Source: Planctomycetes bacterium UBA1662
GTDB lineage: Bacteria; Planctomycetota; UBA8108
NCBI GenBank assembly: GCA_002320775.1
Contig: DCKY01000187.1
Location: 7,161-71,160, forward strand
Reading direction: 5' to 3'
DNA: 64,000 bases
Below, one piece after another: positions 13,358-43,464 of the stretch. Below the pieces are notes generated by a model. The model had not been told where the DNA came from and did not search any database. It saw nothing but the letters and a program-made list of their open reading frames with translations. Position 1 is the stretch's first letter, and every line of letters starts with the position of its first letter. Both the position numbers and the translations under genes were made by a program.

Positions 13358-13930
13358 TTAAACCGGCGATCCGATAGCCAGCTGGTAGCAGTGGGCGAAC
13401 AGCAGGTCGAATTCGAGCTCCTGTAGCTGTTCGAGGTCGAGGCGGCAGTTTTCAAGCTGCCCGCGGACAGCCGTTTCACAGGCATCGGTGAATCCGAAGG
13501 GGTCCCAGGAGGGTGAGATGAATCCCGCCAGGATCTCGGCATCCGTTATCGATGGAGCGGCCTCGGCGAGCTGTTCGAAAATGGCGTGTGGTCCCACCCT
13601 GTTGAACCAGTACTTGGAGTTGGGGTAGTCCGGCTCGAGCCGATGCATGATGGCATGCCAGTAGCTGCCCTCGGCCGAGCCGAGCCTCTGGCTCAGGTCA
13701 TGAGATTCCTCCTGGAAATCTCCGCGGAGCAGCAGGCCGCTGCGAATGCAGGTGGCCATCCCGGGGTCCACTTGCTCAGCTCCCAGGAGCTCCTCGTCAC
13801 TGAGCCGGGCGATCCGGTCCGGCCAGGGCTCGCTCAGGTCATAGGCCGGGGTAAGCCCCAGCAGGGGAATGTCCTGGCGAATCCGGCCAAGGATCCGCGC
13901 CGCCTGGCAGTCATCGGGTAGGTTTTGCAT
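13358..13930 (-). CDS. Hypothetical protein.
   Basis: The 190 aa ORF is convergent with pckA. I recognise no family. Confidence 0.4.
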   Translation of the reverse strand: MQNLPDDCQAARILGRIRQDIPLLGLTPAYDLSEPWPDRIARLSDEELLGAEQVDPGMATCIRSGLLLRGDFQEESHDLSQRLGSAEGSYWHAIMHRLEPDYPNSKYWFNRVGPHAIFEQLAEAAPSITDAEILAGFISPSWDPFGFTDACETAVRGQLENCRLDLEQLQELEFDLLFAHCYQLAIGSPV

Positions 13931-14030
13931 GGGGGCGAGTTAAAGCTCTTCTGTGGTCCTGATTGTACCGGGCGGAAATCATAGCAGGATGAGGTGGGCG
14001 GGTCGAGGACCTGCGTGGCGGCCGTGTTCT

Positions 14031-15074
14031 TCAGGGAGCCTTCCTGAGTTTCTTCGAAGCGCTCTCCAGGAATCGGCGCTCCTCGGAGCTCAGGCTCCCC
14101 ATTCCTTCTTTGTGAATTTTTTCAAGCAGTCCATCAAGACGTTCCCGGTCCCGGGCTTCTCGCTGTTCTTTTTTATCTTCTCGCCGCTGTTGTCTCTTGA
14201 GCTTCCATCCTTCAAAGAAGCCCCGGCGTTTCTCTCCCGGTCCCGGGTGTTCGAGGCTGGTATAGCCTTGAGAAAAATCATGGCCGAAGGCGCCGCTGTC
14301 CTCGGTGTCGTAGAGCACCTGCTCGCGGACCTGCCTGGCGGTCATGAAGTAGAACAGCCCGCAGAAGGCGCTCACAAATCCAAGCTCGTCAAGGAAGGGA
14401 TGGGCGAATCTCCAATTCTCATCTGAGAAGCCCAGGACGATGGTGGCGCCCCCGAAGAGGAGGGCGAGTATGGCGGTGAACTTCGAGATTTTCAGGGTGA
14501 GCTCCAGCGCGCCGTGATGGGAGCCCATCCTTCTCCACAGCACGCAGTGCAGAAGCCGTCCGCCGTCCAGGGGGTAGCAGGGAAGAAGGTTCACCAGGAG
14601 GAGAACGAAGTTCCAGAGGAAGAGGTATTGCAGCAGGCGCTGCCAGAAAATCGGCTGGCCCGAAAAGGGCAGAAACTCAAGCTCCAGGAGAAGGCAGGCC
14701 GCTGTGACCAGCAGTCCTAGTCCCAGGTTGACGAGAGGCCCTCCTGCTGCGACCCAGAACTGCGCGCGATGGTCATGCGGCGCCTCGCATACCGCCAGGC
14801 CCCCAAGGGGCCAGAGGATGATTCTCTCCGTTCTTCCGCCCTGCCTGTGAGCGGCGTAGGCATGGCCGAGTTCATGCAGCAGGATCGTCAGCAGGAGCGC
14901 CAGGGCGAAGGCCGCGAAGGCCAGCAGGGGCGTTCCGTACTGGCCGTGATTTTGCAGCAGGATGTCGAACAGCTTGAGGCCGATGATCAACAGGAGGATC
15001 CAGTGCGCCCAGATGTCGATTCCAAACAGGCGGCTTACCCGCAGGCCAGAGTGACGGAAGGAGTTTTCTCTCAT
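14031..15074 (-). CDS. Site-2 protease family (peptidase M50) membrane zinc metalloprotease.
   Basis: It has the HELGH zinc motif, the LDGG motif (NLLPCYPLDGGRLL) and multiple TM helices. I trimmed the ORF start to MRENSF at 15074. The track's upstream extension to 15359 is low-complexity and overlaps the aminotransferase gene. Confidence 0.8.
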   Translation of the reverse strand: MRENSFRHSGLRVSRLFGIDIWAHWILLLIIGLKLFDILLQNHGQYGTPLLAFAAFALALLLTILLHELGHAYAAHRQGGRTERIILWPLGGLAVCEAPHDHRAQFWVAAGGPLVNLGLGLLVTAACLLLELEFLPFSGQPIFWQRLLQYLFLWNFVLLLVNLLPCYPLDGGRLLHCVLWRRMGSHHGALELTLKISKFTAILALLFGGATIVLGFSDENWRFAHPFLDELGFVSAFCGLFYFMTARQVREQVLYDTEDSGAFGHDFSQGYTSLEHPGPGEKRRGFFEGWKLKRQQRREDKKEQREARDRERLDGLLEKIHKEGMGSLSSEERRFLESASKKLRKAP

Positions 15075-21787: not shown

Positions 21788-22912
<1,125 letters not shown>

Positions 22913-22924
22913 GGGGCTCCGGAG

Positions 22925-23359
22925 ATGCAGGGTGATGCTTCTGAGGCTGAATCCATTGAAGACGCCGATTCCGATGAGGCCGTCCGGTATGGCCGGGGTT
23001 TTTCCTGGGTCGAGGGTGAGCCGGGCAGCCTGGAAGAGATGGTCGAGATAGCTTTTGACTACCGCGGCGACGTGAGCATTCTGCTTAGAGACGAGGATGA
23101 CCTGGTCGGCTATCTTGCCAACCGCTCCATCTCTCAGCAGGCTCCGGCAGAGTCGTGGATCGAGGTTTTTCCTGCTGCCGGGGGGGCCAGGAGGAGGATC
23201 TCGCTGGCGGCTATTCGGGGGCTGATCCTGAGTGGAAAAGACGTTGCTTCCGGAAAGTCCTGGGAGAACTGGTTGAAAAAGTATACTGAACGTCGAGACG
23301 CTCTCGCCCGGGGGGAAGATGTGGAGAATATCGATCTCTTCCCCGATGAGCTGGACTGA
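22925..23359 (+). CDS. Hypothetical small acidic protein, 13 bp downstream of hpnH.
   Basis: The 144 aa product is acidic. I recognise no family. Confidence 0.35.
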   Translation: MQGDASEAESIEDADSDEAVRYGRGFSWVEGEPGSLEEMVEIAFDYRGDVSILLRDEDDLVGYLANRSISQQAPAESWIEVFPAAGGARRRISLAAIRGLILSGKDVASGKSWENWLKKYTERRDALARGEDVENIDLFPDELD

Positions 23360-23649
23360 GGGTTCCTTTCTGAAACTACCCCTCGGGGCTGTCTTTGCGC
23401 GCCGCTTTCTCTCTTTTTTCAGGCCCATGCCGCCGCTGTTCTATTGCGGTCTGAAGCTTACGGAATGCCCGATGGACAGGCTCCAGAACGATGTGGGCTT
23501 CCTTCCATGAGGCATCCACTTCGGGGCCACAATGTCATTAAAGGTCACCCTGATTTGTCAGGGTAGATATGGACCTATGCGGGGTTTAAAATATACGGAA
23601 GGCTTTGTGTGAGATGTTATATGTTCGTGGGGAATGGGGGATGTAAGAA

Positions 23650-26600
23650 ATGAGAGCACCGATGAAGATCTTCTGTCCTGTCGTCAGCCGGACGGCAGTT
23701 TTATTTTTTATAGCGGCTCTGCTCCTGGGCCACGCAGGCCTGCGCGCGGGTGAATTCGACATCATCATCAATGAGCTGAACTACAACGTCTTTGACAACG
23801 GCGGCGAGGACAGCCTGGAGTTCATCGAGCTCTACAATCGCGGAGGGACAGTCGTCGATCTAAGCGGCTGGGATTTCTCCCGCGGTGTGGACTTCACCTT
23901 TTCCGCGGGGACCATGGTCGAGCCAGGCGAGTATCTTGTCCTGAGTCCTGACCCTGCGGCCGCAGCGGCTCGCTATGGATTGCAGCGCGTCCTGGGACCC
24001 TATCTTGGTCAGCTGGATAATGGCGGCGAGATCCTCGAGCTTCTCAATTCGAAGGGGCAGATGATCAGCCGGGTTCATTATGACGACAGTACGCCCTGGT
24101 CAGGCCGGCCGGATGGCCGGGGGCCGTCGCTGGAGTTTACCGGCGTTGACAATGCCAATAGCCTGGCGAGAAACTGGAAGCCCAGCAAGACTCTCGGGGG
24201 AACTCCCGGACGGGTCAACTCACGCAGGGTGCTGCCCTCGCGCCTGAGCCAGCGAGGTCCGCGTCCTATCGTCTCGTCACAGGGTATCTGGAGGACTTTC
24301 GCCGGCCGCTCAAACCCTTCGGATCCGATAGATGCCTGGACCCGGCTTGACTTTGATGACGAGGATTGGGGCGAGGCCCAGGGAGGCTTCGGGTACGGGC
24401 AGCGGGTCGGCTTCAACTTTTCGACCCAGATCAGCAATATGCGCCGCGAGTTCAACACCTACTACATCCGCAGTAACTTTACAGTTACAGAGGACACCCT
24501 GGCGGCAATTACCGATGGGTCGATTGATCTCAGCCTGACAGTCTCCTATGACGATGCCTTTGTCGCCTACGTAAATGGTACGGAGGTGGCCAGGGACAAT
24601 GTTGGCGACCCCGGGGAACCGGTTGCCTTTGATGCCACCGGGGATGAGAGCCGCAACGAAACGGCTCGTGTTGAGCTCCCCGGCATTGCAGACCTCCTGG
24701 TTGAGGGCGAAAATGTTTTCGCGCTCCAGGGTGTCAATGCTACACGGAACAGCAGGGACTTCTATATCGCCGCCGATCTGCTCATGGCGGAGAACTCTCA
24801 GGATGAGAAGGAAGATGAATCGGCAAATCCCTACATCGGAAGAATTATCAACGAGCTGCTGGCCGGTGAAGGGGATGACCCGGGCTTTATAGAGCTCTTC
24901 AATCCCGAGGACGAGGAGCTCGACCTCAGCGGTAATGTCCTGCTCTCCAGTCGCGGTAATTTTCTCTACGAGATTCCCGGCGGGACCGTTCTTGCCCCGG
25001 GAGAGTTTGTAGTCTTTGACAGCAAGGTGTTGGCTCTTCCTGTTCCAGCCGGCGGCGCCCGCTATGTTCTGCTTGCGGCCGATGGCCGCACTGTTCTCGA
25101 TGACATCGATGTCGAGATCGAGACGCCTGGCCGAAGTGTGGGCCGTTTCCCTGAGGGGGATGAAGATGTCTACGTGCTGGACCAGCCGACCAACGGCGCG
25201 GCCAACACCTATGCGTACAGCTCACCGGTGGTCATCAACGAGATTCATTTTCATCCGCCCTATGTTCCCGCCGGCAAGGACTGCTCCCGACAGTGTTCGG
25301 ACGCTCGTCAGTGGGTTGAGCTGTTGAACCGCAGCGAGGAAGCTGTGGACCTTGGCGGCTGGAAGCTCACCAATGGAATCAGGTATACCTTCGAGCCCGG
25401 CACCATCCTGGCTGCCGGAGCCTACCTTGTCGTAGCCTCTTCACTGGAGGAATTTTCGGCGCTCCACGATGGTGTCGAAAATGTCGTCGGCGACTGGTCC
25501 GGGCGTCTCAACCACGCCACCGAGACGATCAACCTGCGTGATGGTCTCGGTAACCGTGTCGACAGGGTGATCTACGGAGACGGCGGCGCGAAGAATGACG
25601 AGGATCCCGATGATGGAGTGGACGATCGCACCTTCCGCGGCAGCACCTGGCCGATACTTGCGGATGGAGATGGCCCCACCATCGAACTCATCAACCCGGG
25701 CCTCGGCAACCGGGCCGGTGTTTCCTGGAGGGCCTCCAATGATGCCGGTGGAACTCCCGGTGTCCAGAACTCAGTTTTTGAGGCGGACCCCGCCCCCTCG
25801 ATCAGGTCGGTGAAGCATTCCCCCGCCGTTCCGCGCAGCGATGAGGCCGTGGTGGTGACCTGCTCGATCTCGGCTCTCGAGGCTCTGACCGAGGCCGAGG
25901 TCCAATGGTCGATAGCGGGAGGCCCCTCCGGCAACGCGAATCTTCGAGACGATGGCGCGGGTCCTGATGAGCTCGCCCAGGATGGCGTCTTCTCAGCCAG
26001 TATCCCGGCGCAGGATGATGGGGACATCGTTAGATTCTCGGTCGTTGCCGCGACTGGCGCTGGCGGCAGAGTTCGTCTGCCGCTTGAGCCGGAGGCGGAC
26101 CCTTTCCGCGGGTTCCAGGGGGTCTTCTATCTCTACGAGGTAGATAATTCGAATCCGCCGGATACCGGCGCTGCGGTCTTCCGCATCATCATGAATCCGA
26201 ACGACAGCGATGAGCTTGAGGACCGCGATGAGGACAGCAACGTTCTCCTGCCGGCGACGCTGATCTGCGATGGAGAGATCTACTATTGCGCCGGTGTTCG
26301 TTATCGAGGCGAGAACTCACGTCGATTGACCAACAAGGCCTTCAAGATCAGGCTCCCGCCGGAGAATTCCTGCAAGGGTATTGGAAATATCAATCTGCTT
26401 GCGGGTAATGGAAATGATTTCGGCACCTCGACCTTCAACGAGCTTCTCTCTTCCGATCTCTATCGAAGAGCTGGTGCGCCTTACCCCCAGGAATGGAACG
26501 CTGTCCTGCATTTTGCCGGAGTTGTGGGACGTAATTACGACACCCGCTACATTCGCAAGGAGGCCTATGACGATGACTTCCTCACGCGTTTCTTCGCCGG

Positions 26601-29499
26601 CAATTCAGGAGGTAACTTCTACCGCCCAATGGACCCGGGCGGCCGGGTAATGGGCAACCTGGAATACCAGGGGACCGACCCTGAAGACTACCGCCGTATT
26701 TACGACAAGAGGTCGAATGAGGATGAGGATGATTTCAGCGATGTCATCGAGCTGACGAGAATGTTTGATGCCGACGAAACTCCCCAGGCCGAATTCAGGC
26801 AGAGAGCCGAGGAGCTGATCGATGTTCGGCAATGGGCGCGCTTCTTTGCCATCATGGCATGTGTAACGAATACCGATGGGGGCATCTGGAACGATGGAGG
26901 GGAAGATTATTTCCTCTATCGCATGCCTGCCGATGCCGATCGCCCCGATGCCGGGAAATGGCTGATCCTGTGCTGGGACCTGGAGGAGACCTTTACCGGC
27001 AGCAATGAGAGGCTCTTTCGTCCGGAGGCCGACGGGCTCCAGAGATTTTTTGCCGTACCCGAGTTCGCTCGTCTTTATTACGAGGAGCTGCTGATTGTCA
27101 GGAGAGCGGTCTTCTCCCGGGCCCAGATGCGCCAGCGATACGGCTACGCCGAGGTGATGTTTCCACCCGAGGATGTCTACGATGTCGTCGATGAGGTCGA
27201 CACGACCGTTACCGAACGCCTTGGCTATTTCGATGCCAACATCACCCTGGGGGTCGAAGGCGGCGCGCGCCGCAACAACGATGGCGGCAGCCGGCTTATT
27301 GATACGGGAGAATCCTGGCGCTATTTCCGGGGTACGGAGGATCCCCCGGGAGACGGTCTCGCCTGGACGCGTCTCGGCTACGACGATGAGACCTGGGAGA
27401 CGGGTGAGAGCGGCTTCGGCTACGGGGATGGAGATGATGCCACCGTGCTCGGCGACATGCGGAATAACTATACGACCGTATTTATCAGGAAGACCTTCGA
27501 GCTCGAAGACCCGGCTGCCATCGAGGAGCTGACCCTCATCATGGATTATGACGATGCTTTTGTCGCCTTCATCAATGGAGAGGAGATCGCTCGATCGAAC
27601 AACGCTCCTGACGGAGCGGTTGACTATGAATCAACCTCGACCTCGAACCACGAGGCTGGAGATGACCTTGACCGCTTTAATATCTCCATGGACAAGATTC
27701 GCGCCGGCGAGAACGTTCTCGCTATATTGGGCATCAACGGCGACCTGCCCTCCAGCGACTTCTCCCTCATTCCGGTCCTGACCTCGACCCTTGCCGGAGC
27801 TGTGGCGGGTCCCACCGGCGGCTGCGGCGATAGTATCTACACCACGGGTTCAACGATCATTCTCGCGGGCCTGGCGGATCCGGTGAACACGAGGTCCGTG
27901 GTCGTTCGAGGCCGTGAGGCGGCGCTCGATATGGTGAGTGATGGCAATGGCCCTTACGGTCTGCGCTGGCAGGTGGAGGTCAGCGGCCTGGAGCCTGGGG
28001 AAAACCTCGTCGAGGTCATCGCCCTTGATGGAGAGGCAGGAAAAGGCGAGCCGATTGCCAGCTTCGAAGCCGTGATCCATCGATTTGAAGGCGATTTCCG
28101 CGAGTACGATGGAGCCCTCGATGGAGATGAGGAATGGACGGCAGAGGGAGGCCCCTACAGGTTGAGGGGAAATGTGAGAGTGCCGGATGGGACGACCCTT
28201 CGCATTCGCCCGGGAGCCGTGGTGCTGGCCGATGCGGGCGCCTCGATTATTGTCAGTGGAGAGCTTCGCGCTGAGGGCAGCGAAGAATCACCGATTATCA
28301 TGCGGGCCTTCTCCTGCGCCGATGAGTGGGGCGGAATCGCGTTTAACGAGACCGGTACAGATGAAGATGATCCGACTCACCTGCTGAGCTTCTGTGATAT
28401 CAGGGGAGGCTCGAATGCGGACGACTACGAGGGCTGCATCGCTCCGACGGACTCTCGATTGCTGGTGACCGACTGCCATCTCGAGAACATCCCGGGCAAT
28501 GCGATCGATGGGGTGGACGCTGTCCTCGAGGTTCGGCGGACGACCATTCGCAACATCTTCGAGGGGATCCACTGCGAGGACTCCGACACGATCGTGCTTG
28601 ATACGATCATCGAGAATATGACGGGTAATAGCGACGCGATTGATTTTGATGGCAGCGGCTCCGGACGATCCAGGATCCAGGGGTGCATTTTCTACGGCAG
28701 CTCCGACGATGGAGTTGACCTCGGCGAGGTGTCGGTCGATATCAAGGACAACATCTTTGTGGACATTGCCGACAAGGCGATTTCGATCGAAGATGTCGGA
28801 GACCAGGGACACCCGACGATCAGCGGGAATCTGATCGTTCGCTGCGGCACCGGCATGGCGATCAAGAATGGGATTACGATCTCGGAGGGGGATCACAACA
28901 CCATCACCGAATGCCAGGAGGGTATCGCACTTTTCGCTAAGGATGAGAGCAACGAGGGCGGGCACGCGACCTTCCACAGCGTCATCTGCTGGGGAAATGC
29001 CATCGATGTCATCGTCGATGAGCTCTCAACGGTCGCTTTCGATTTTTCGAACATCGGGATGGACGAGTGGCCCGGGGAGGGAAATCTCTCGGTCGATCCC
29101 CTCTTTCTTGACCCTGCCGGTCTTGACTACACTCTGGCCGCCGGGTCTCTCTGCATCGGTACAGGCAGGGAGGGCAGTGACATGGGGGCCTTCAGCTTTG
29201 AAGGCGGCGGGCCAGATCCCGAGGATACGGTTTTCCTGCGCGCCGATGCCAATCTGGATGGCGAGGTTGACGTCTCAGATGCTATCGCAACGCTCGATTA
29301 TCTCTTCCGCGGCGGACCTGGACCCGATTGTCTCGATGTGATGGATGCCAACGATGATGGACAGCCGGATGTTTCCGATGCCGTGTTCCTGCTGCGCTAT
29401 CTCTTCTCCGCGGGCTCCCCTCCGCCCGCCCCCTTCCCGGAGTCCGGGACCGACCAGACGCCCGATGGACTCTGGTGTCCTGCCGGCCCGGCCAATTGA
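23650..29499 (+). CDS. Giant secreted protein (1949 aa): 3x lamin-tail domain, 2x jelly-roll module, CotH kinase-like domain, right-handed beta-helix, C-terminal dockerin-like module.
   Basis: It has a signal peptide. LTD signatures are FDIIINELNYN...LEFIELYN, IINELLAGEGDDPGFIELFNPED and VVINEIHFHPP. The CotH block is FKIRLPPENS...LLAGNGNDFG...RNYDTRYIRKEAYDD...FYRPMD. The W..YDD..W..GFGYG...YDDAFVA(Y/F)(V/I)NG.E(V/I)AR module occurs twice. The beta-helix repeats include IENMTGNSDAIDFDG, GCIFYGSSDDGVDLG and ITISEGDHNTITEC. The C-terminal repeats are ADANLDGEVDVSDAIATLDYLFRGG and MDANDDGQPDVSDAVFLLRYLFSAG. Confidence 0.8.
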   Translation: MRAPMKIFCPVVSRTAVLFFIAALLLGHAGLRAGEFDIIINELNYNVFDNGGEDSLEFIELYNRGGTVVDLSGWDFSRGVDFTFSAGTMVEPGEYLVLSPDPAAAAARYGLQRVLGPYLGQLDNGGEILELLNSKGQMISRVHYDDSTPWSGRPDGRGPSLEFTGVDNANSLARNWKPSKTLGGTPGRVNSRRVLPSRLSQRGPRPIVSSQGIWRTFAGRSNPSDPIDAWTRLDFDDEDWGEAQGGFGYGQRVGFNFSTQISNMRREFNTYYIRSNFTVTEDTLAAITDGSIDLSLTVSYDDAFVAYVNGTEVARDNVGDPGEPVAFDATGDESRNETARVELPGIADLLVEGENVFALQGVNATRNSRDFYIAADLLMAENSQDEKEDESANPYIGRIINELLAGEGDDPGFIELFNPEDEELDLSGNVLLSSRGNFLYEIPGGTVLAPGEFVVFDSKVLALPVPAGGARYVLLAADGRTVLDDIDVEIETPGRSVGRFPEGDEDVYVLDQPTNGAANTYAYSSPVVINEIHFHPPYVPAGKDCSRQCSDARQWVELLNRSEEAVDLGGWKLTNGIRYTFEPGTILAAGAYLVVASSLEEFSALHDGVENVVGDWSGRLNHATETINLRDGLGNRVDRVIYGDGGAKNDEDPDDGVDDRTFRGSTWPILADGDGPTIELINPGLGNRAGVSWRASNDAGGTPGVQNSVFEADPAPSIRSVKHSPAVPRSDEAVVVTCSISALEALTEAEVQWSIAGGPSGNANLRDDGAGPDELAQDGVFSASIPAQDDGDIVRFSVVAATGAGGRVRLPLEPEADPFRGFQGVFYLYEVDNSNPPDTGAAVFRIIMNPNDSDELEDRDEDSNVLLPATLICDGEIYYCAGVRYRGENSRRLTNKAFKIRLPPENSCKGIGNINLLAGNGNDFGTSTFNELLSSDLYRRAGAPYPQEWNAVLHFAGVVGRNYDTRYIRKEAYDDDFLTRFFAGNSGGNFYRPMDPGGRVMGNLEYQGTDPEDYRRIYDKRSNEDEDDFSDVIELTRMFDADETPQAEFRQRAEELIDVRQWARFFAIMACVTNTDGGIWNDGGEDYFLYRMPADADRPDAGKWLILCWDLEETFTGSNERLFRPEADGLQRFFAVPEFARLYYEELLIVRRAVFSRAQMRQRYGYAEVMFPPEDVYDVVDEVDTTVTERLGYFDANITLGVEGGARRNNDGGSRLIDTGESWRYFRGTEDPPGDGLAWTRLGYDDETWETGESGFGYGDGDDATVLGDMRNNYTTVFIRKTFELEDPAAIEELTLIMDYDDAFVAFINGEEIARSNNAPDGAVDYESTSTSNHEAGDDLDRFNISMDKIRAGENVLAILGINGDLPSSDFSLIPVLTSTLAGAVAGPTGGCGDSIYTTGSTIILAGLADPVNTRSVVVRGREAALDMVSDGNGPYGLRWQVEVSGLEPGENLVEVIALDGEAGKGEPIASFEAVIHRFEGDFREYDGALDGDEEWTAEGGPYRLRGNVRVPDGTTLRIRPGAVVLADAGASIIVSGELRAEGSEESPIIMRAFSCADEWGGIAFNETGTDEDDPTHLLSFCDIRGGSNADDYEGCIAPTDSRLLVTDCHLENIPGNAIDGVDAVLEVRRTTIRNIFEGIHCEDSDTIVLDTIIENMTGNSDAIDFDGSGSGRSRIQGCIFYGSSDDGVDLGEVSVDIKDNIFVDIADKAISIEDVGDQGHPTISGNLIVRCGTGMAIKNGITISEGDHNTITECQEGIALFAKDESNEGGHATFHSVICWGNAIDVIVDELSTVAFDFSNIGMDEWPGEGNLSVDPLFLDPAGLDYTLAAGSLCIGTGREGSDMGAFSFEGGGPDPEDTVFLRADANLDGEVDVSDAIATLDYLFRGGPGPDCLDVMDANDDGQPDVSDAVFLLRYLFSAGSPPPAPFPESGTDQTPDGLWCPAGPAN
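26100..27150 (+). other. CotH (atypical kinase) domain within the giant protein.
   Basis: See the CotH motifs listed for the parent CDS. Confidence 0.6.
29236..29415 (+). other. Tandem dockerin-like module at the C-terminus of the giant protein.
   Basis: It has two DANxDGxxDVSDA...YLF repeats. Confidence 0.55.
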
Positions 29500-35841: not shown

Positions 35842-36600
35842 TCAGCTGGGCCTGTAGCCCATGGAGCTGAGCGATTCCTGTAGTTTCTTCCGGGCGTAGA
35901 AAAGTCGAGACATTACGGTTCCAACGTTGCAACCCACGACCTCTGCAATTTCTTTGTAGGAGAGATCTTCAGATGTGTGGAGGACGAAAACAACCTGGTG
36001 TTTATCTGAGAGCGAGGAGATGGCTTGCTGCAGGTTCTCCCGGAGTTCCTGTTCCCGGGCATACTCAACCGGCGCCTGGGCCGGGGCTCTGCGAGCGGTA
36101 GGCTTTCCAAGGGCCTCCATGGCGGACTCTTCCATGCCGTGGAGGGGCCGGCTTTTGCGGCTGCGTGTAAAATCGATCGAGCGGTTGACAGTGATCCGAT
36201 AGAGCCAGGTGAAGAACTTGGAGTCGGTCTTGAATTTTTCGAGCGCCTGGTAGACACGGAGAAAAACTTCCTGCGCAACCTCGAGGGCGTCTTCCCTATT
36301 GCGTACAAAACGGAAAGAGATTCCGTAGACTCGCTGCCGGTATTTTTCGAAGAGAAATTCAAACGCGGCTTCATCGCCGGCAAGGAAGGCTTTCACCTTG
36401 AGAATGTCTTCGTTGTCGGAGGAGTCTCTCAATTTCTTTTTCCGGCGATCCAGGGCGGGTTGAATCGGGATGACAACGGCGCCACCTCGACGGAGTTCAT
36501 GGCGGACCTCCACCTCAACATGCGAGGGGGAATCAAAGGGTCCGCGCTGGCGTACCAACGTGCCGTCGATTGTAGCGGGGAGGAGTTGGGCTCTCATCAT
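35842..36600 (-). CDS. RNA polymerase sigma-70 factor, ECF subfamily.
   Basis: The region-2 block is FEFLFEKYRQRVYGISFRFVRNREDALEVAQEVFLRVYQ. The region-4 block is LSYKEIAEVVGCNVGTVMSRLFYARKKL. The N-terminal ~60 aa of the ORF may be an extension, or the true start may lie further in. Confidence 0.8.
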   Translation of the reverse strand: MMRAQLLPATIDGTLVRQRGPFDSPSHVEVEVRHELRRGGAVVIPIQPALDRRKKKLRDSSDNEDILKVKAFLAGDEAAFEFLFEKYRQRVYGISFRFVRNREDALEVAQEVFLRVYQALEKFKTDSKFFTWLYRITVNRSIDFTRSRKSRPLHGMEESAMEALGKPTARRAPAQAPVEYAREQELRENLQQAISSLSDKHQVVFVLHTSEDLSYKEIAEVVGCNVGTVMSRLFYARKKLQESLSSMGYRPS

Positions 36601-38724: not shown

Positions 38725-41700
38725 TTGGTTTCAGAAAAGAATCAGGAAGACAAACAAGTGATAAAGTCAGGAACCGGGCACGAAGCAACAGGCCCATTTC
38801 CATTTCCTTCTAGTTTCCAGTTTCGCGAAGCTGAAAAGGCCACGCTCGAAGCTTTTTTCGAGAAGGTGTTTTTCGCTCAGTGCTTTACTGACGAGAAGCT
38901 CAAGGCCATCGATCGCATGCGCTGGAGGCCTGGGAAGGCCGAGTCGACTGAAGAGGTTGAGGCCGTCGAAAAGAGTTCGGAGGCCGCTCCGGACGCATCT
39001 TCCGAGGATGTTTCGTCTGTTGAGAAGCGGCCGGTTGTGGCCACTCCTTATGTCATGCTCTGCCGCGGGGCGGATGGCATAGGGAAGACGCGAATCTTTC
39101 GCCACCTGCGCGAGCGTGCCCAGGAAAAAGAAGTTTCGGTTTACGAAACACACAATTACGAGGTCGAGGGGATCCCGCTCAAGCCCTTCCTCCATACGAT
39201 TCGACGGATCATGCGCGACCTTGACGACAAGTCGGGTCTCGGCCAGGCGAATCAACGAGTCGGCTCGTCGCTGATCAACCGCTACCGCCATGCGCTCGAA
39301 AGTCTGATTCCCGAAGCTTTCGGCGATGTCGGGGCTTCCGCCGAGAATAGCTTGCTCAATTCAGAGAATTGGGAGGACGAGAAGGTTCGGATTTTTGATG
39401 GCATCACCCAATTCCTCCTCGAGGTTTCGGTCCACAAGCCCCTGCTGATCCTGGTTCACGACCTGCATTGGGCTGACAGAGCGACGGTCGAGCTGCTCAG
39501 GTATATCGGGCGCAATCTTCAGCTGAGAAACGAGGCCCTGTCGGCGGAGCATTCTTCGGCGGAAGGAGTCGATGCGGAGCAGGTAACCGAAGATTGGGAG
39601 AGACTCTCGGTTCACACAGATCTTGCCGCTGCCGAGACAGGCCAACTGGAAAAAGCCGAAGCAGTTGCGGGCGACGAAGAGAGCCCCCCTGAGACCTGGC
39701 CTTCCCGGTTGATGCTGCTTGCGAACTATCGCTCAGTTGATGAAGACTCAGGCGGAGAGAGCGACCGCGCCATCGAAAGCCTCGGGCGGGAGGACTTCAG
39801 CTTTCACGGTGAGCTTCGGCCTCTGCATCGGCAGGAGGCGCGGTATTTTCTCGAGAAGTCAATCGAGGGAGTCCAGGTGGGAGGTGAGGGGCTGGAGATC
39901 ACAGCCGACGCGGCGGATGCGGTGTTTGAATTATCCGAAGGGTTTCCGAGCTTTCAGCAGGAGCTGTTCCGGGGAGTTTTCCTGGGCAAGTCGAACCTCG
40001 CCTGCTGGAGCAGTGAGAGCTTCAGGGAATACGTTGACAGCGCTACCGGCGCGGGCGGTCTCGAATTATTAGAAGATGCTCCCGCGCGTCATCGTATCCT
40101 GGTGCGCCGCCTTGAAGATTATTTCTCTTCGGGCGAACAAGGGCGTTTGTCCAATGAGGCCCGGGTTCTGCAGGTCCTGGCCCTGGCCCGTCGGCCCGTG
40201 AGGAGTGACCTGGTGGGTCATGTCCTTGCATTGCAGGAGACCGCCTCCGGTGACGCCGAAGAGATGGCCGCGGCGACCGGCAAGCTCGGCCGCTTTTCAA
40301 ACGCCGAGGGAACCGAGAAGGTCGAGGCGATCCTGAGAACTCTCGAGCAGCGTGGAATCACAGCCCTCGCGAGCCCGGGAAAGTATTATTTCAGGCTTTG
40401 GGATTACACCCAGGTCGTGGAGGCGACGATTGAGCCCGAGGTCAGGACGCTCATTCATCAACGAATTGGTGAGGAATACAGGAGGCGTCTCGGCGAGGGA
40501 AACGGTGAGACCATCTCTACAGGCGAGGAGGTCTACGAGGTCTATCATCATCTCAGCCGGGGCAAGGAGTCATCCTCGGCGATGGAATTCGGTCTCGCGG
40601 CTGGGAATCGCTTTGAGCGGACCTTCGCGCTTCAGAAGGCGAGAGACCTCTATACCGAGATGGTCTCCCTTCTCACGGCGGAGGAAGAGCTGCCGGAGCG
40701 CCTGACGGTTCTCGGGCACCTGGCCAGGGTCCAGGCCACCCTTCGTGAACACGATGGCGCTCTTGAATCGCTCACGAGAATCAACCAGGAGGAGGCGGGC
40801 AGCCTGGAGCCTGCCGTCCGGATTAATCTCTACCTTCTGGAGGCCCAGGTGGTTGCCGCCGCTGATCCAGGCAGGGCGCTCAAGGTCCTGGCCAGGGCGC
40901 AGAAGATCGTAACCGAGGAGCAGAGTATCGAGTCGATCAGGGTCCAGCTTGAGGTGACCCGCTGCAGGATGCTGCGGCAGGACTGGAAGCGGACCATCAA
41001 TTACGGGCTCAAGGGCGCGGAGCAGGCGCAGAAGATTCCTGGCTGCGTCGAGCTGGGTATGTTCTATCGTTATGTCGCCCTCGCCTTTTACCGCAAGGGT
41101 GATTACGCCCACTCCCTCGATAATTTCCAGAGGGGTCTCGCTGTTGCTGAAGATCTCCAGAATTACTCCCTCACGGTGAACATCCTGGATGACCTGGGAA
41201 GGGTTTATCTCGAGAGGGGAAATCACTTCCGTGCCGCGCGGTACCTCTACAAGGCCCTCGAGATGCGTCAGCGGCAGCAGGATGTCGCCGGTCTCTGCAA
41301 ATCGTATGACCAATTGGGGCTGGTCTACCGCCGTGATGGTGACTACCACAAGACGATCGACAATCTCAGCCGCAGCCTGAACCTCAAGCTTCGAACGGGT
41401 GATTTCGAGGGACTCAACCCGACGCTGGGAACCCTGGGGGATCTTTGTTTCCGCCTGGGAAATTACCAGGTTGCTATCGATTATTTCAGCAAAGAGGTTG
41501 AGAACAGCAAGAAGGTCAAGGAGATCGAGGCCGATGAGACCGGGGGCCTCGCGGATGCCTTCGTGCGGATGGGACGTGTCTACTTTGAGATCGGCGATCT
41601 GAAGCAGGCGGATAAATTCTGCAAGCAGGTCCTGATCCTCGCCTCCGAGTTTCAGCTGAAATCGTACGAGGCCGATGCGCTGATGCTGGATGGAAACATC

Positions 41701-43464
41701 AAGGCTTACCAGCTCGACTGGAATCTCGCGGAGAAGAGCCTCAAGCAGGCGGCTGATTTCTATGGGAAGCTCGGTCATAGAATTCGCCAGGCCTGCGCTC
41801 TGCTTGACCTGGCCGAGGCGAAACTCGCCCGTGAATATTACGCCGAGGCTCTCAAGCTCGCCTCCAGGGCCCAGGTGATAGCCGAGGATGTAAGGGCTCT
41901 CGATGTTCAGGTGCGAGTCCTGACGGTTAAGGGGAACGTTCACAGGCACCTCAAGGGTGGAAATCCCGAGAAGGTTCGCGAGCAGCTCGGCAAGGCGATC
42001 GAGCTGAGTCAGAGGCTGAGCGATATCAGGGTTCTCTTCGACCTTTACTACGCGCTGGCAAAGGTCCATCACACAGACCGTGAGTTTTCCGAGGCCGCAA
42101 CCTATTACGGTAAGGCGGATGCGATCATTAAGCGGATCACTGAGCAGATGCCCGAGGAGCTGCGCTCCAGGTTCTCCGATGATCCCCGGCGCAAGATCTT
42201 CGTGGAGGATTTTCTCCGCTTTCAGAAGGAATCTGAGGCGAAGGGGCCGACCCTCGAGGGCCGTGACCGGACGGCATCCCACGGAGATCTCAGGGAGCGT
42301 CCGGTGGGCTCCGATGATTACAAGGGCTTGCTGGAAAGCGTACTCTCGATCAATAGCAGGATGAACCAGCTGGACTTCCACCAGGCCTGTCTTGACGAGG
42401 CCCTGGAGCTGACCGGGGCCGAGCGCGGCCTCATCATGGTGGTTAATGAGCGTCAATACGCGACCGTAGCTTCAGAAGGCTTTGGAGATGACTTTGCCGC
42501 ACATCCAGAGGCCTCCTCGGCGAGCCAGCTTGCCGAAGAGACCATTCGCCGCGGCCGCGGGTCTTACAGCAGCGGCGGTGAAGAGGAAGGTCACGGCAAG
42601 ATGAGGCCCCTCAAGGTCCTGCGGGACCGCTCCGTTCTCGTGATCCCCCTGAAGACGGAGGACAGGGTCCTTGGCAGCATCTATCTCGACCGGCTGAACT
42701 CTCTGGGTTCTTTTACTCCCAGGCACCAGGTGCTGCTGGAGGCCTACGCTCTCCAGGTCGCTGTCGTTCTTCAGAACCGCCGCCAGCTTGATGTGGCGAT
42801 CCGTGAGCCGGTCACGGGGTTTTATACGCCCAGCTACTTCCTTGACCGTCTCCGCGATGAATACAGGCTCTTCAATCTGCATGACAAGTCCTTCTGCCTG
42901 GCGGGCTTCTATCTTCCCGTGCTTGAAGATTCCGTGGGGGAGACCCAGAGCGGTCTCGGGGACAAGCTGGCAAAAGAGATTGCCTCGGTCGCCAGCGGAG
43001 CGATCGTTTGCTGGGGTAACCCGGTTCTCTACCTGCTCTTTCGGGATACAGACCTGGGTATCGCGGAGCAATACACCATCAGGGTACAGGAGAGACTGCA
43101 GGACCTGCTCGGCGAGGATGTTCCCTACGAGGCGCTACCGGTCGAGCGCCGCTACCAGCTGGGTTCGGATATTTATTTTGATCTGCGCCGCAAGCTGCTT
43201 CCCGAAGAGTGCGATCACAAGACGCTCACGGATCTTCGCCAGATCCTCGCCAAGGATGTAAAGCTCAAGGAGGCCAAGAAAATCCTGGAGCGCCAGATTA
43301 TCGAGAGCACCCTGCGTAAGACCAACGGCAACATCACCCATGCCGCGCGGGAGCTGGGAATCCATCGTCCCCAGCTCTCCAACTATCTGAAGAAATACGG
43401 ACTGAACAAAGAGCGCTTCGAGAGCTCGATTGACACCTCACGCATCTCCCCGATAGAGAACTGA
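38725..43464 (+). CDS. Giant cytoplasmic regulator (1579 aa): P-loop NTPase (AAA/STAND-like), TPR array, GAF, degenerate GGDEF, Fis-type HTH.
   Basis: It uses a TTG or nearby start. The Walker A is GADGIGKTRIF. Multiple TPR repeats include YAHSLDNFQRGLAVAED and YHKTIDNLSRSLNL. The GAF domain is LELTGAERGLIMVV...VLVIPLK...LGSIYLDR. The GGDEF-like domain starts EPVTGFYTPSYFLDRL, but carries VCWGNP in place of RYGGEEF. The C-terminal HTH is ITHAARELGIHRPQLSNYLKKYGL. Confidence 0.8.
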   Translation: MVSEKNQEDKQVIKSGTGHEATGPFPFPSSFQFREAEKATLEAFFEKVFFAQCFTDEKLKAIDRMRWRPGKAESTEEVEAVEKSSEAAPDASSEDVSSVEKRPVVATPYVMLCRGADGIGKTRIFRHLRERAQEKEVSVYETHNYEVEGIPLKPFLHTIRRIMRDLDDKSGLGQANQRVGSSLINRYRHALESLIPEAFGDVGASAENSLLNSENWEDEKVRIFDGITQFLLEVSVHKPLLILVHDLHWADRATVELLRYIGRNLQLRNEALSAEHSSAEGVDAEQVTEDWERLSVHTDLAAAETGQLEKAEAVAGDEESPPETWPSRLMLLANYRSVDEDSGGESDRAIESLGREDFSFHGELRPLHRQEARYFLEKSIEGVQVGGEGLEITADAADAVFELSEGFPSFQQELFRGVFLGKSNLACWSSESFREYVDSATGAGGLELLEDAPARHRILVRRLEDYFSSGEQGRLSNEARVLQVLALARRPVRSDLVGHVLALQETASGDAEEMAAATGKLGRFSNAEGTEKVEAILRTLEQRGITALASPGKYYFRLWDYTQVVEATIEPEVRTLIHQRIGEEYRRRLGEGNGETISTGEEVYEVYHHLSRGKESSSAMEFGLAAGNRFERTFALQKARDLYTEMVSLLTAEEELPERLTVLGHLARVQATLREHDGALESLTRINQEEAGSLEPAVRINLYLLEAQVVAAADPGRALKVLARAQKIVTEEQSIESIRVQLEVTRCRMLRQDWKRTINYGLKGAEQAQKIPGCVELGMFYRYVALAFYRKGDYAHSLDNFQRGLAVAEDLQNYSLTVNILDDLGRVYLERGNHFRAARYLYKALEMRQRQQDVAGLCKSYDQLGLVYRRDGDYHKTIDNLSRSLNLKLRTGDFEGLNPTLGTLGDLCFRLGNYQVAIDYFSKEVENSKKVKEIEADETGGLADAFVRMGRVYFEIGDLKQADKFCKQVLILASEFQLKSYEADALMLDGNIKAYQLDWNLAEKSLKQAADFYGKLGHRIRQACALLDLAEAKLAREYYAEALKLASRAQVIAEDVRALDVQVRVLTVKGNVHRHLKGGNPEKVREQLGKAIELSQRLSDIRVLFDLYYALAKVHHTDREFSEAATYYGKADAIIKRITEQMPEELRSRFSDDPRRKIFVEDFLRFQKESEAKGPTLEGRDRTASHGDLRERPVGSDDYKGLLESVLSINSRMNQLDFHQACLDEALELTGAERGLIMVVNERQYATVASEGFGDDFAAHPEASSASQLAEETIRRGRGSYSSGGEEEGHGKMRPLKVLRDRSVLVIPLKTEDRVLGSIYLDRLNSLGSFTPRHQVLLEAYALQVAVVLQNRRQLDVAIREPVTGFYTPSYFLDRLRDEYRLFNLHDKSFCLAGFYLPVLEDSVGETQSGLGDKLAKEIASVASGAIVCWGNPVLYLLFRDTDLGIAEQYTIRVQERLQDLLGEDVPYEALPVERRYQLGSDIYFDLRRKLLPEECDHKTLTDLRQILAKDVKLKEAKKILERQIIESTLRKTNGNITHAARELGIHRPQLSNYLKKYGLNKERFESSIDTSRISPIEN

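Follow-up and report, generated by a model that had tools for sequence, protein, structure and literature searches.

The question raised by this locus is what a giant protein, predicted to leave the cell, does with a CotH kinase fold embedded among lamin-tail domains, beta-sandwiches, a beta-helix and a dockerin-like C-terminus. The gene lies in the window, the whole 64,000-nucleotide stretch of DNA that was analysed, and the initial annotation had placed it at positions 23650..29499 as a 1949-aa open reading frame. This frame is single and intact on the + strand, the strand of every feature given below: it starts with ATG, codes for 1949 aa followed by a stop codon, and no internal stop codons were found between 23650 and 29499. 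A database protein, P0001, is 98% identical to it. From the N-terminus, the domain order is a signal-peptide-like segment, a lamin-tail domain (LTD), a jelly-roll module, two further LTDs, an Ig-like domain, CotH, a second jelly-roll module, a second Ig-like domain, a right-handed beta-helix and the dockerin-like C-terminus. All of the domain calls made in the initial annotation proved correct in Pfam scans, profile searches and copy-to-copy alignment, and the accuracy of that domain reading is the main outcome of the analysis. It is nearly certain that the gene product is a secreted modular protein of the CotH family.

The CotH kinase-fold domain spans aa ~830-1210 (26137..27279). The initial annotation had made the kinase interpretation depend on a CotH HMM match and on conserved active-site residues, and both were found. 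When the whole protein was scanned, Pfam CotH (PF08757) matched aa 883-1165 with 86.9 bits (cutoff, 23.8), and a profile of 28 family sequences matched Bacillus cereus CotH (5jd9_A; E 3.6e-31) over profile positions 38-352. A search of solved structures with the single sequence returned dockerins only and did not find CotH.

In Bacillus subtilis CotH, D228Q and D251A are published inactive mutants (PMC7821199). The residue numbers from that study were mapped via 120 Bacillaceae CotH sequences, not via B. subtilis CotH itself; in these proteins the motifs NxDG, HNY and PWD stand at fixed spacing, and in 48 Bacillaceae proteins of 363 aa they fall at positions 228, 233 and 251. In a joint MAFFT alignment, these positions corresponded to D1076 (26875-26877), D1086 (26905-26907) and D1110 (26977-26979) of the catalytic segment (26875..26979), and Bacillus R50/G51, R55, E128, D131 and R281 aligned with identical residues of the query. 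Within the family there is little conservation of the Lys that aligns with Bacillus K60. The catalytic Asp, which is part of NxDG in Bacillus, is D1076 in TNTDGG and is occupied by D in 16 and by E in 12 sequences of the 28-sequence family alignment. The metal-binding Asp, part of PWD in Bacillus, is D1110 in CWDLEE; it is invariant (28/28), as is the RG motif. These alignments demonstrate that the CotH kinase fold keeps its catalytic and metal-binding aspartates, the counterparts of D228 and D251; an alignment of the catalytic residues to B. subtilis CotH had been proposed in the initial annotation.

The canonical catalytic-loop Asn (N233 in HNY of Bacillus, five residues after the catalytic Asp) is absent from the domain, and D1086 (in GEDY) is aligned in its place, preceded by a 5-residue insertion. 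Of the 28 relatives, 22 have D at this position and 6 have N. Because the third catalytic-loop residue, Asn233, is Asp, the catalytic site is not identical to that of Bacillus CotH; the change is conservative for metal binding yet non-canonical. Asp at the N233 position (22/28) and Glu as the presumed catalytic base (12/28) are unusual for kinases, and the chemistry of the site could be altered.

Export is suggested by the N-terminus (aa 1-33; 23650..23748), which, when read by eye, has the basic n-region of a signal peptide, a hydrophobic core, AVLFFIAALLLG, and then LRA followed by GE. No lipobox was seen when the same 33 residues were read. Hydrophobicity windows identified the N-terminal sequence MRAPMKIFCPVVSRTAVLFFIAALLLGHAGLRA, followed by GE, as the only hydrophobic stretch in the whole protein, and secretion of the 1949-aa protein is predicted from these two features, which are its sole basis. 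The planctomycete from which it comes is marine and planktonic, and the protein would be exported by the Sec route to the cell surface or into the medium.

The dockerin proposed for the other end of the protein corresponds to aa 1858-1949 (29221..29496), which contain two putative calcium-loop motifs, DANLDGEVDVSD and DANDDGQPDVSD, followed by a Pro-rich tail, and the cysteine pair C1894 and C1943. Pfam Dockerin_1 (PF00404) matched aa 1865-1918 at 18.0 bits when the whole protein was scanned, below its cutoff of 22.9, and the tail scanned alone scored 22.9 bits, equal to the cutoff. The proposal was borne out by a profile of 21 orthologous tails, whose best matches among solved structures were type I dockerins (CelS, 1daq; E 3.4e-5). 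A hydrophobic helix pattern can be read in the sequence after each of the duplicated calcium loops. In a phmmer search, 67 of 120 homologues ended with this module, and both cysteines were invariant. By these comparisons, the C-terminus is a type I dockerin homologue that has two invariant cysteines and is extended by a Pro-rich tail particular to the lineage. Among the proteins of the 64-kb window that were scanned, none was a cohesin.

The three LTDs of the initial annotation were recovered by Pfam LTD (PF00932) as three stretches in the whole protein (E 7e-44; 149 bits summed; above the cutoff). Their boundaries are the envelopes of an iterated (jackhmmer) search: aa 33-183 (23746..24198), aa 393-508 (24826..25173), which is the most divergent copy at 38 bits in that search, and aa 521-700 (25210..25749), within which the best Pfam stretch is aa 524-643. 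The third LTD is followed by an Ig-like linker domain (aa ~705-825; 25762..26124), the boundaries of which are approximate; its 'choice-of-anchor X' motif at aa 764-792 matches NCBIfam NF041940 with 29.3 bits (cutoff, 25). A probable second Ig-like spacer (aa ~1400-1478; 27847..28083) is conserved in orthologues and gives weak hints only in Pfam (Big_3_4, E 0.097).

The two unassigned jelly-roll copies of the initial annotation, at aa ~205-385 (24262..24804) and aa ~1215-1392 (27292..27825), are real: they align with 34% identity (E 1e-27), without a Pfam match. The fold was modelled for copy 2, and copy 1 is linked to it through the 34% identity. The model shows that both would be galactose-binding-domain-like beta-sandwiches such as GH2 glycosidases have at their N-terminus. 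Membership in the GH2 N-terminal sugar-binding domain family (PF02837) was rejected for lack of an HMM match; a Pfam scan of the isolated segment gave no match, including none to Glyco_hydro_2_N. In contrast to the GH2 domain, the fold appears here as a free-standing mobile module with no GH2 catalytic barrel attached. The same jelly-roll is found elsewhere beside GH5 and beside a GH39-like domain. PF28492, a precomputed family in the homologues, was considered as the jelly-roll and rejected; it is Beta_helix_4.

The right-handed parallel beta-helix (aa 1479-1855; 28084..29214), of the pectin-lyase-like or CASH type, had been described as pectin-lyase-like, and the fold was confirmed by a match to Pfam NosD (aa 1612-1768; 33.6 bits; cutoff, 23.6) and by its AlgG/NosD-like architecture. 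It carries a putative acidic ladder of D1662, D1665, D1686, D1687, D1690 and D1708, together with K1709, the stacking of which is predicted from a 22-24-residue spacing and the strand pattern of a model. The beta-helix is shown to be of the carbohydrate-enzyme (AlgG/NosD/lyase) type in the sense of fold resemblance, not of an enzyme-family assignment, and it differs from its namesakes in several respects. Identity to AlgG and NosD is just 14-15%. Unlike AlgG, the beta-helix is fused inside a giant protein, with no alginate operon nearby. NosD itself is a stand-alone periplasmic protein that delivers copper sulfide for nitrous-oxide reductase, whereas there is no nosFY/nosZ context here. NosD membership was rejected on context, as the domain lies within a protein of 1949 aa whose gene has housekeeping neighbours and no nos genes.

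About 50 co-linear orthologues were found in Planctomycetota MAGs, in which the sole name given is 'lamin tail domain-containing protein'. On ten MAG contigs, orthologues 76-96% identical share the same gene neighbourhood, and the pattern is therefore not due to chance. All domains are conserved co-linearly down to about 35% identity, and on this comparison of sequences the protein is one of a conserved family of orthologues in which the domain order is fixed. With 79% identity, it has diverged at a rate no higher than that of the adjacent housekeeping proteins, an argument for selection acting on its full length. The neighbouring genes in the window are housekeeping genes, and close relatives share only these; more distant orthologues have other neighbours, except for a second LTD-CotH paralogue nearby. 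No conserved neighbour gene pointing to a substrate or partner was found in the window, in close relatives or in distant orthologues. A small upstream ORF was considered as a CotB/CotG-like substrate and rejected; it encodes an acidic protein and not a Ser-rich repeat. Scans of promoters and terminators performed no better than shuffled controls.

The explanation of the whole that we prefer, with confidence that is evenly balanced, is an exported modular protein that is held at the surface, binds polymer and uses its CotH domain for phosphotransfer to protein. The dockerin-like module would hold the protein on a cell-surface partner and would owe its rigidity to two calcium sites and probably also to a disulfide that joins the two invariant cysteines. 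The polymer bound by the three LTDs and the two beta-sandwiches would belong to the cell envelope or to marine organic matter, and the beta-helix would bind, or chemically modify, an acidic polysaccharide via its stacked Asp/Lys ladder. The CotH domain would then use a nucleotide to phosphorylate a hydroxyl group on a matrix or surface protein close by, on the model of Bacillus CotH acting on the coat proteins CotB and CotG.

The initial annotation had suggested an extracellular kinase with a glycan-binding or glycan-modifying scaffold. The CotH HMM match and the presence of D1076 and D1110 speak for the kinase, and the two GH2-type beta-sandwiches and the AlgG/NosD-like beta-helix speak for the scaffold at the level of the fold. 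The replacement of Asn233 by Asp weighs against an unqualified kinase assignment, and glycan modification is a matter of fold resemblance only. The chances that the CotH domain is a catalytically active phosphotransferase are about even. ATP is not known to be available outside the cytoplasm, a serious difficulty for any kinase that is secreted; no reported activity of secreted bacterial CotH proteins was found in the literature.

Without catalysis, the CotH domain might serve as a binding surface, and the protein as a whole as a matrix scaffold, a calcium-stabilised adhesin or a structural surface element, for which the non-enzymatic role proposed for Mucorales CotH surface proteins is a precedent. 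Most of the modules are of the binding type (three LTDs, two beta-sandwiches, two Ig-like domains and the dockerin), and the missing ATP source, the replaced catalytic-loop Asn and a base position that is either D or E also fit this reading. However, all 28 sequences share D1110 and the RG motif, and without exception they carry a carboxylate at position 1076, a pattern expected of a working active site rather than a decayed one. Conservation of the CotH domain among orthologues is also at least that of the binding modules. In favour of the scaffold, on the other hand, fungal CotH proteins are studied for spore formation and virulence, not as enzymes (PMC9973265). On balance, an adhesin or scaffold without catalysis seems rather unlikely.

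Another reading, which we consider improbable, makes the beta-helix the catalytic heart of an enzyme (lyase, epimerase or hydrolase) that processes an acidic marine polysaccharide, with the beta-sandwiches as carbohydrate-binding modules and CotH as an accessory. The beta-helix profile weakly matched alginate lyase 7o84 (E 0.007), the jelly-roll accompanies GH5 and GH39-like domains in other proteins, and the stacked Asp and Lys one coil apart may resemble the calcium-dependent lyase sites of PL9/PL6 enzymes. However, Pfam gave no lyase, hydrolase or epimerase family membership for the beta-helix, only generic NosD/Beta_helix repeats, and nearly equal scores in the fold comparison went to NosD and to several adhesins, none of them a carbohydrate enzyme. 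Alginate epimerases carry a DPHD-type motif, and this motif is absent from the protein sequence. Furthermore, P0042, P0045 and P0047, which are orthologues at a greater distance, have lost the acidic ladder, and beta-helix catalysis is therefore not a family-wide feature.

It is more doubtful still that CotH is a glycan kinase, with a sugar hydroxyl as its target on a polysaccharide or glycoprotein that the beta-sandwich and beta-helix on either side keep in place: carbohydrate-type modules bracket CotH in an order fixed in all orthologues, and Fam20B and POMK, which are sugar kinases, provide a parallel among eukaryotic secretory-pathway kinases, but the argument is purely architectural and ATP supply outside the cell would be equally a problem. 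Moreover, the CotH enzymes characterised so far all have protein Ser/Thr residues as their targets (PMC7821199). An extracellular phosphotransferase acting on a polysaccharide or glycoconjugate, in which the Asn-to-Asp change would suit the catalytic loop to the cations of seawater or to the use of a donor that is not ATP, is likewise a long shot; if CotH were directed at glycans, the family would be the first bacterial secreted glycan kinases.

Should activity of the CotH domain be demonstrated, this would be relevant to the ways in which marine planctomycetes alter their own surface or their food polymers. Secreted CotH-domain proteins are widespread, occurring in the cellulosomes of clostridia and anaerobic fungi and in many Planctomycetota. 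The family described here offers a test case, with an apparently intact active site, carbohydrate-type modules in a fixed arrangement around the kinase fold and orthologues in abundant ocean MAGs.

Comparison with known systems places the protein within established types. Fam20C-type kinases are eukaryotic and Golgi-lumenal and use imported ATP; by description, they resemble the planctomycete protein in having an atypical kinase fold and working outside the cytosol. CotH has been described as distantly related to these secretory-pathway kinases (PMC7821199). Bacillus CotH (B. subtilis; B. cereus, PDB 5jd9/5jda) belongs to the same Pfam family and shares the fold by profile (E 3.6e-31), and its catalytic Asp, metal-binding Asp, YRG motif and 37 of 125 Bacillus-invariant positions are kept. 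The planctomycete domain differs in having Asp for Asn233 and insertions of 5 and 6 residues between the catalytic motifs, and it lies inside a 1949-aa exported protein, whereas Bacillus CotH is a single domain of about 360 aa in a mother cell with ATP. The 'Planctosome' hypothesis for freshwater Planctomycetes (Nemodlikiaceae) envisages cohesin-dockerin assemblies anchored by a lamin-tail-domain protein (PMC6461901). That model is hypothetical and concerns peptidases with no CotH component, unlike the CotH-bearing protein considered here.

The novelty implied in the initial annotation was overstated, because dockerin-tagged CotH proteins are already on record: the listed constituents of the cellulosome in Clostridium thermocellum include Cthe_0239 (LTD-LTD-Fn3-CotH-type I dockerin) as well as CseP/Cthe_0044 (CotH, dockerin) (PMC6083626). 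Dockerin-tagged LTD-CotH proteins are known from both clostridial and fungal cellulosomes, and the present domain combination is an elaboration of a recorded architecture. According to a 2025 review, the role of cellulosomal CotH proteins is still unclear (PMC12484212). Compared by description only, the planctomycete protein resembles Cthe_0239 in being secreted and in combining lamin-tail domains and CotH with a C-terminal type I dockerin. It differs from the Cthe proteins in its host, a Gram-negative marine planctomycete rather than a cellulolytic clostridium, in the addition of two GH2-type beta-sandwiches and an AlgG/NosD-like beta-helix, and in a dockerin that has, in addition, a Pro-rich tail and two invariant cysteines.

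The gene at 23650..29499 is, as the initial annotation had proposed, a single open reading frame encoding 1949 aa; it lies on the + strand and begins with an ATG, and the G+C content of its region (58-60%) is the same as that of the remaining window. The encoded protein is strongly acidic (D+E, 17.3%; K, 1.2%). Its sole hydrophobic stretch lies at the N terminus, where basic residues lead into a hydrophobic core and then an LRA/GE junction, and by eye this region reads as a Sec signal peptide without a lipobox. Pfam detected lamin-tail domains (LTDs) in three stretches (E, 7e-44), with bounds of aa 33-183, 393-508, and 521-700 by iterated search; a CotH domain at aa 883-1165 (86.9 bits; cutoff, 23.8); and a NosD-type beta-helix at aa 1612-1768 (33.6 bits). 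In the same whole-protein scan Dockerin_1 reached 18.0 bits at aa 1865-1918, under its cutoff of 22.9, and NCBIfam placed a short "choice-of-anchor X" motif at aa 764-792. The three LTDs and the CotH domain recognized initially were thus recovered. The domain order (signal, LTD, jelly-roll, LTD, LTD, Ig-like, CotH, jelly-roll, Ig-like, beta-helix, dockerin-like tail) is conserved domain for domain in orthologues down to ∼35% identity; the first jelly-roll is absent from some orthologues of ∼1,750 aa.

A single-sequence search of solved structures did not recover the CotH domain, and a profile of 28 CotH domains from the planctomycete family matched Bacillus cereus CotH (5jd9) with an E value of 3.6e-31. 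CotH has an atypical kinase fold and is distant kin of Fam20C, and the D228Q and D251A variants of B. subtilis CotH are catalytically inactive (PMC7821199). Active-site residues were mapped in two independent ways, from motif spacing in Bacillaceae CotH and from a joint MAFFT alignment with the planctomycete domains. The motifs NxDG, HNY, and PWD lie at fixed spacing in 120 Bacillaceae sequences, and the 363-aa proteins among them (n = 48) have Asp, Asn, and Asp at exactly positions 228, 233, and 251. In the joint alignment D228, N233, and D251 correspond to D1076, D1086, and D1110, and therefore both experimentally validated residues are present, neither having been lost as would argue against a kinase. 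R50/G51 (the YRG motif), R55, E128, D131, Y237, R281, and Y292 are also identical, and 37 of 125 Bacillus-invariant positions are kept. All 28 domains of the planctomycete family have Asp at position 1110, position 1076 is always a carboxylate (16 D and 12 E), and position 1086 is D in 22 sequences and N in 6. Insertions of 5 and 6 residues separate the catalytic motifs. The site is thus not canonical, with these insertions, Asp in place of Asn, and Glu tolerated at the base position.

The unassigned jelly-roll described initially does occur twice, at aa ∼205-385 and ∼1215-1392 (24262..24804 and 27292..27825; alignment A2), and the copies share 34% identity (E, 1e-27). No Pfam-A match to either copy was found in the models scanned. 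When solved sequences were searched with the jelly-roll profile, a GH78 rhamnosidase (E, 1e-4) and a GH2 galactosidase (E, 1.4e-3) matched weakly. The module is carried by 114 of 120 listed homologues (181 copies in all), and its HMM matched 21,931 proteins at E ≤ 1e-3, 16,219 of them at E ≤ 1e-10, among 1.84 billion cluster representatives, often with two to seven copies per protein. Its partners in ten shorter matches include a GH5 cellulase, a GH39-like domain, LTDs, DUF1800, and PKD. This behavior is that of a promiscuous accessory beta-sandwich found in secreted proteins, for which a carbohydrate-binding role is plausible, and the domain seems to be both uncatalogued and very abundant.

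The beta-helix, modeled from an alignment of 27 orthologous segments, has regular three-stranded coils (pLDDT, 94.8), so that the pectin-lyase-like designation was right at the level of the fold. Comparison scores were 32.0 for the alginate epimerase AlgG, 29.0 for NosD, 28.8 for the Klebsiella K1 capsule lyase, 27.7 for GH87, 27.0-27.4 for GH110, 25.4-26.4 for PL6 alginate lyases, and 24.8 for Pel9A. Phage tailspikes and some adhesins scored within the same range, so the beta-helix is assignable to a fold and not to an enzyme family. Acidic groups one coil apart (D1662/D1665; D1686/D1687/D1690; D1708/K1709), each just ahead of the same strand in successive coils, are kept in close orthologues and missing from the most distant ones. 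We take this ladder to be reminiscent of calcium-dependent lyase sites.

The final 92 residues (29221..29496; alignment A4) contain two 12-residue dockerin/EF-hand-type loops, DANLDGEVDVSD and DANDDGQPDVSD, with a helix pattern after each. Scanned alone, the tail scores exactly at the Pfam Dockerin_1 cutoff, and the best solved matches of a profile of 21 orthologous tails are clostridial type I dockerins (1daq, E of 3.4e-5; also 2mte, 4fl4, and 3ul4), which bears out the dockerin assignment. Unlike those dockerins, the module has a conserved Pro-rich extension past the core (GG..P.aPfP..G.DPt.D.l.C) and two invariant cysteines, one between the loops (68/68 sequences) and one at the end, which may be joined as a disulfide clamp. 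All named database relatives of the tail are from Planctomycetes, and some are annotated as dockerin type I. Among the matches listed, the module is at the extreme C terminus in all 67 homologues that have one. A second protein built from the same set of modules, secreted-looking and 901 aa long (7164..9869, +), has an internal copy at aa ∼322-405 that likewise ends in the Pro-rich tail and terminal Cys; the module is therefore more than a C-terminal sorting signal. That protein continues with a jelly-roll (aa ∼410-580) and a second, C-terminal dockerin-like module (Dockerin_1, 23.3 bits), and no family matched the first ∼300 aa of the protein.

A database search returned 372 relatives, ∼50 of them co-linear and near full length (1,650-1,950 aa); those with a name are annotated as "lamin tail domain-containing protein" and come from metagenome-assembled genomes (MAGs) of Planctomycetes, Planctomycetota, or Phycisphaerae. 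In a species-representative genome collection, orthologues 76-96% identical lie on ten marine Planctomycetota MAG contigs, including UBA1146, UBA8108, an ALOHA bin, a Tara-derived bin, and a 3,000-m bin. The window and these contigs share the order aldehyde dehydrogenase, radical-SAM protein, small acidic protein, big gene, acyltransferase, RsmD-like methyltransferase, hypothetical protein, and pseudouridine synthase. The big protein (79% identity) is as conserved as its housekeeping neighbors (72-88%), which marks its gene as a stable part of the chromosome that is under purifying selection rather than an island or a gene in decay. Two distant orthologues have unrelated neighborhoods, each with a second LTD-CotH paralogue within ∼5 kb (locus L012, 17781..21295 [-] and 13407..15041 [+]; locus L013, 14186..19516 [-]); L012 also has a metallophosphatase gene directly downstream. 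In the window, Pfam scans of the 21 larger proteins revealed no comparable paralogue, and neither a conserved partner nor a gene for a candidate substrate emerged from the neighborhoods of the close and the two distant orthologues.

Upstream of the big gene, ORFs 22886..23428 (-) and 22925..23359 (+) overlap; the latter encodes a 144-aa acidic protein that is also called in a related assembly (L014), and the longer ORF is probably spurious. Elsewhere, a putative 1,579-aa regulator (38725..43464, +) combines an AAA_16 ATPase with TPR repeats, a GAF domain, and a Fis-type HTH; it is encoded downstream from the gene for an ECF-type sigma factor (35842..36600, -). According to Pfam, the 1,476-aa ORF at 56621..61051 (-) is an unusual fusion of two rhodanese domains, a YidC-type 60KD_IMP (a membrane insertase), PPDK_N and PEP-utilizers domains (a phosphotransfer enzyme), and, at the C terminus, a PilZ domain; it could also be a mis-joined reading frame.

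The big protein is an exported-looking modular protein that combines a CotH kinase fold and its two essential Asp residues with carbohydrate-type accessory folds and a dockerin homologue. The initial proposal of an extracellular kinase on a glycan scaffold stood as to domains and active-site Asp residues and did not stand as to activity and substrate. In the most likely scheme, the calcium-dependent dockerin-like module would tether the protein to the cell surface, the LTDs and beta-sandwiches would bind a polymeric ligand, and the beta-helix would bind or modify an acidic polysaccharide, while the CotH domain would phosphorylate a neighboring protein. The phosphate donor is the weakest step of this scheme, and we know of no extracellular source of ATP. 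The altered catalytic loop may point to a different chemistry. For LTDs, the in vitro activity of the ExeM nuclease is lower without the domain, and a proposed membrane-directing role is cited in that study (PMC6085458). The protein could instead be a non-catalytic adhesin or scaffold, a reading that suits the accessory folds and sits less easily with the retained Asp pair. A less likely alternative is a carbohydrate enzyme to which CotH is accessory; AlgG heads the beta-helix comparison, but the acidic ladder is confined to closer orthologues. A glycan kinase is the least likely of the three, and we consider an extracellular glycan-directed phosphotransferase quite improbable.

Secreted, dockerin-tagged CotH proteins were already known, and the novelty implied initially does not hold: the Clostridium thermocellum cellulosome table lists the dockerin-bearing CseP (CotH) and Cthe_0239 (LTD, LTD, Fn3, CotH) (PMC6083626). 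CotH-like proteins occur in cellulosomes with an unclear role according to a 2025 review, which also refers to studies of CotH kinases from fungal cellulosomes (PMC12484212), and a study of Zetaproteobacteria suggested that adjacent domains presumably set CotH function (PMC8250860). For freshwater Planctomycetes, a "planctosome" of cohesins and dockerins, anchored by an LTD-containing protein, has been hypothesized (PMC6461901). Dozens of orthologues of the big protein are already public under generic names. It is a planctomycete elaboration, of a functionally uncharacterized kind, of the dockerin-tagged CotH theme; compared with the catalogued proteins, it adds two GH2-type beta-sandwiches, an AlgG/NosD-like beta-helix, and a dockerin variant that is presumably Cys clamped.
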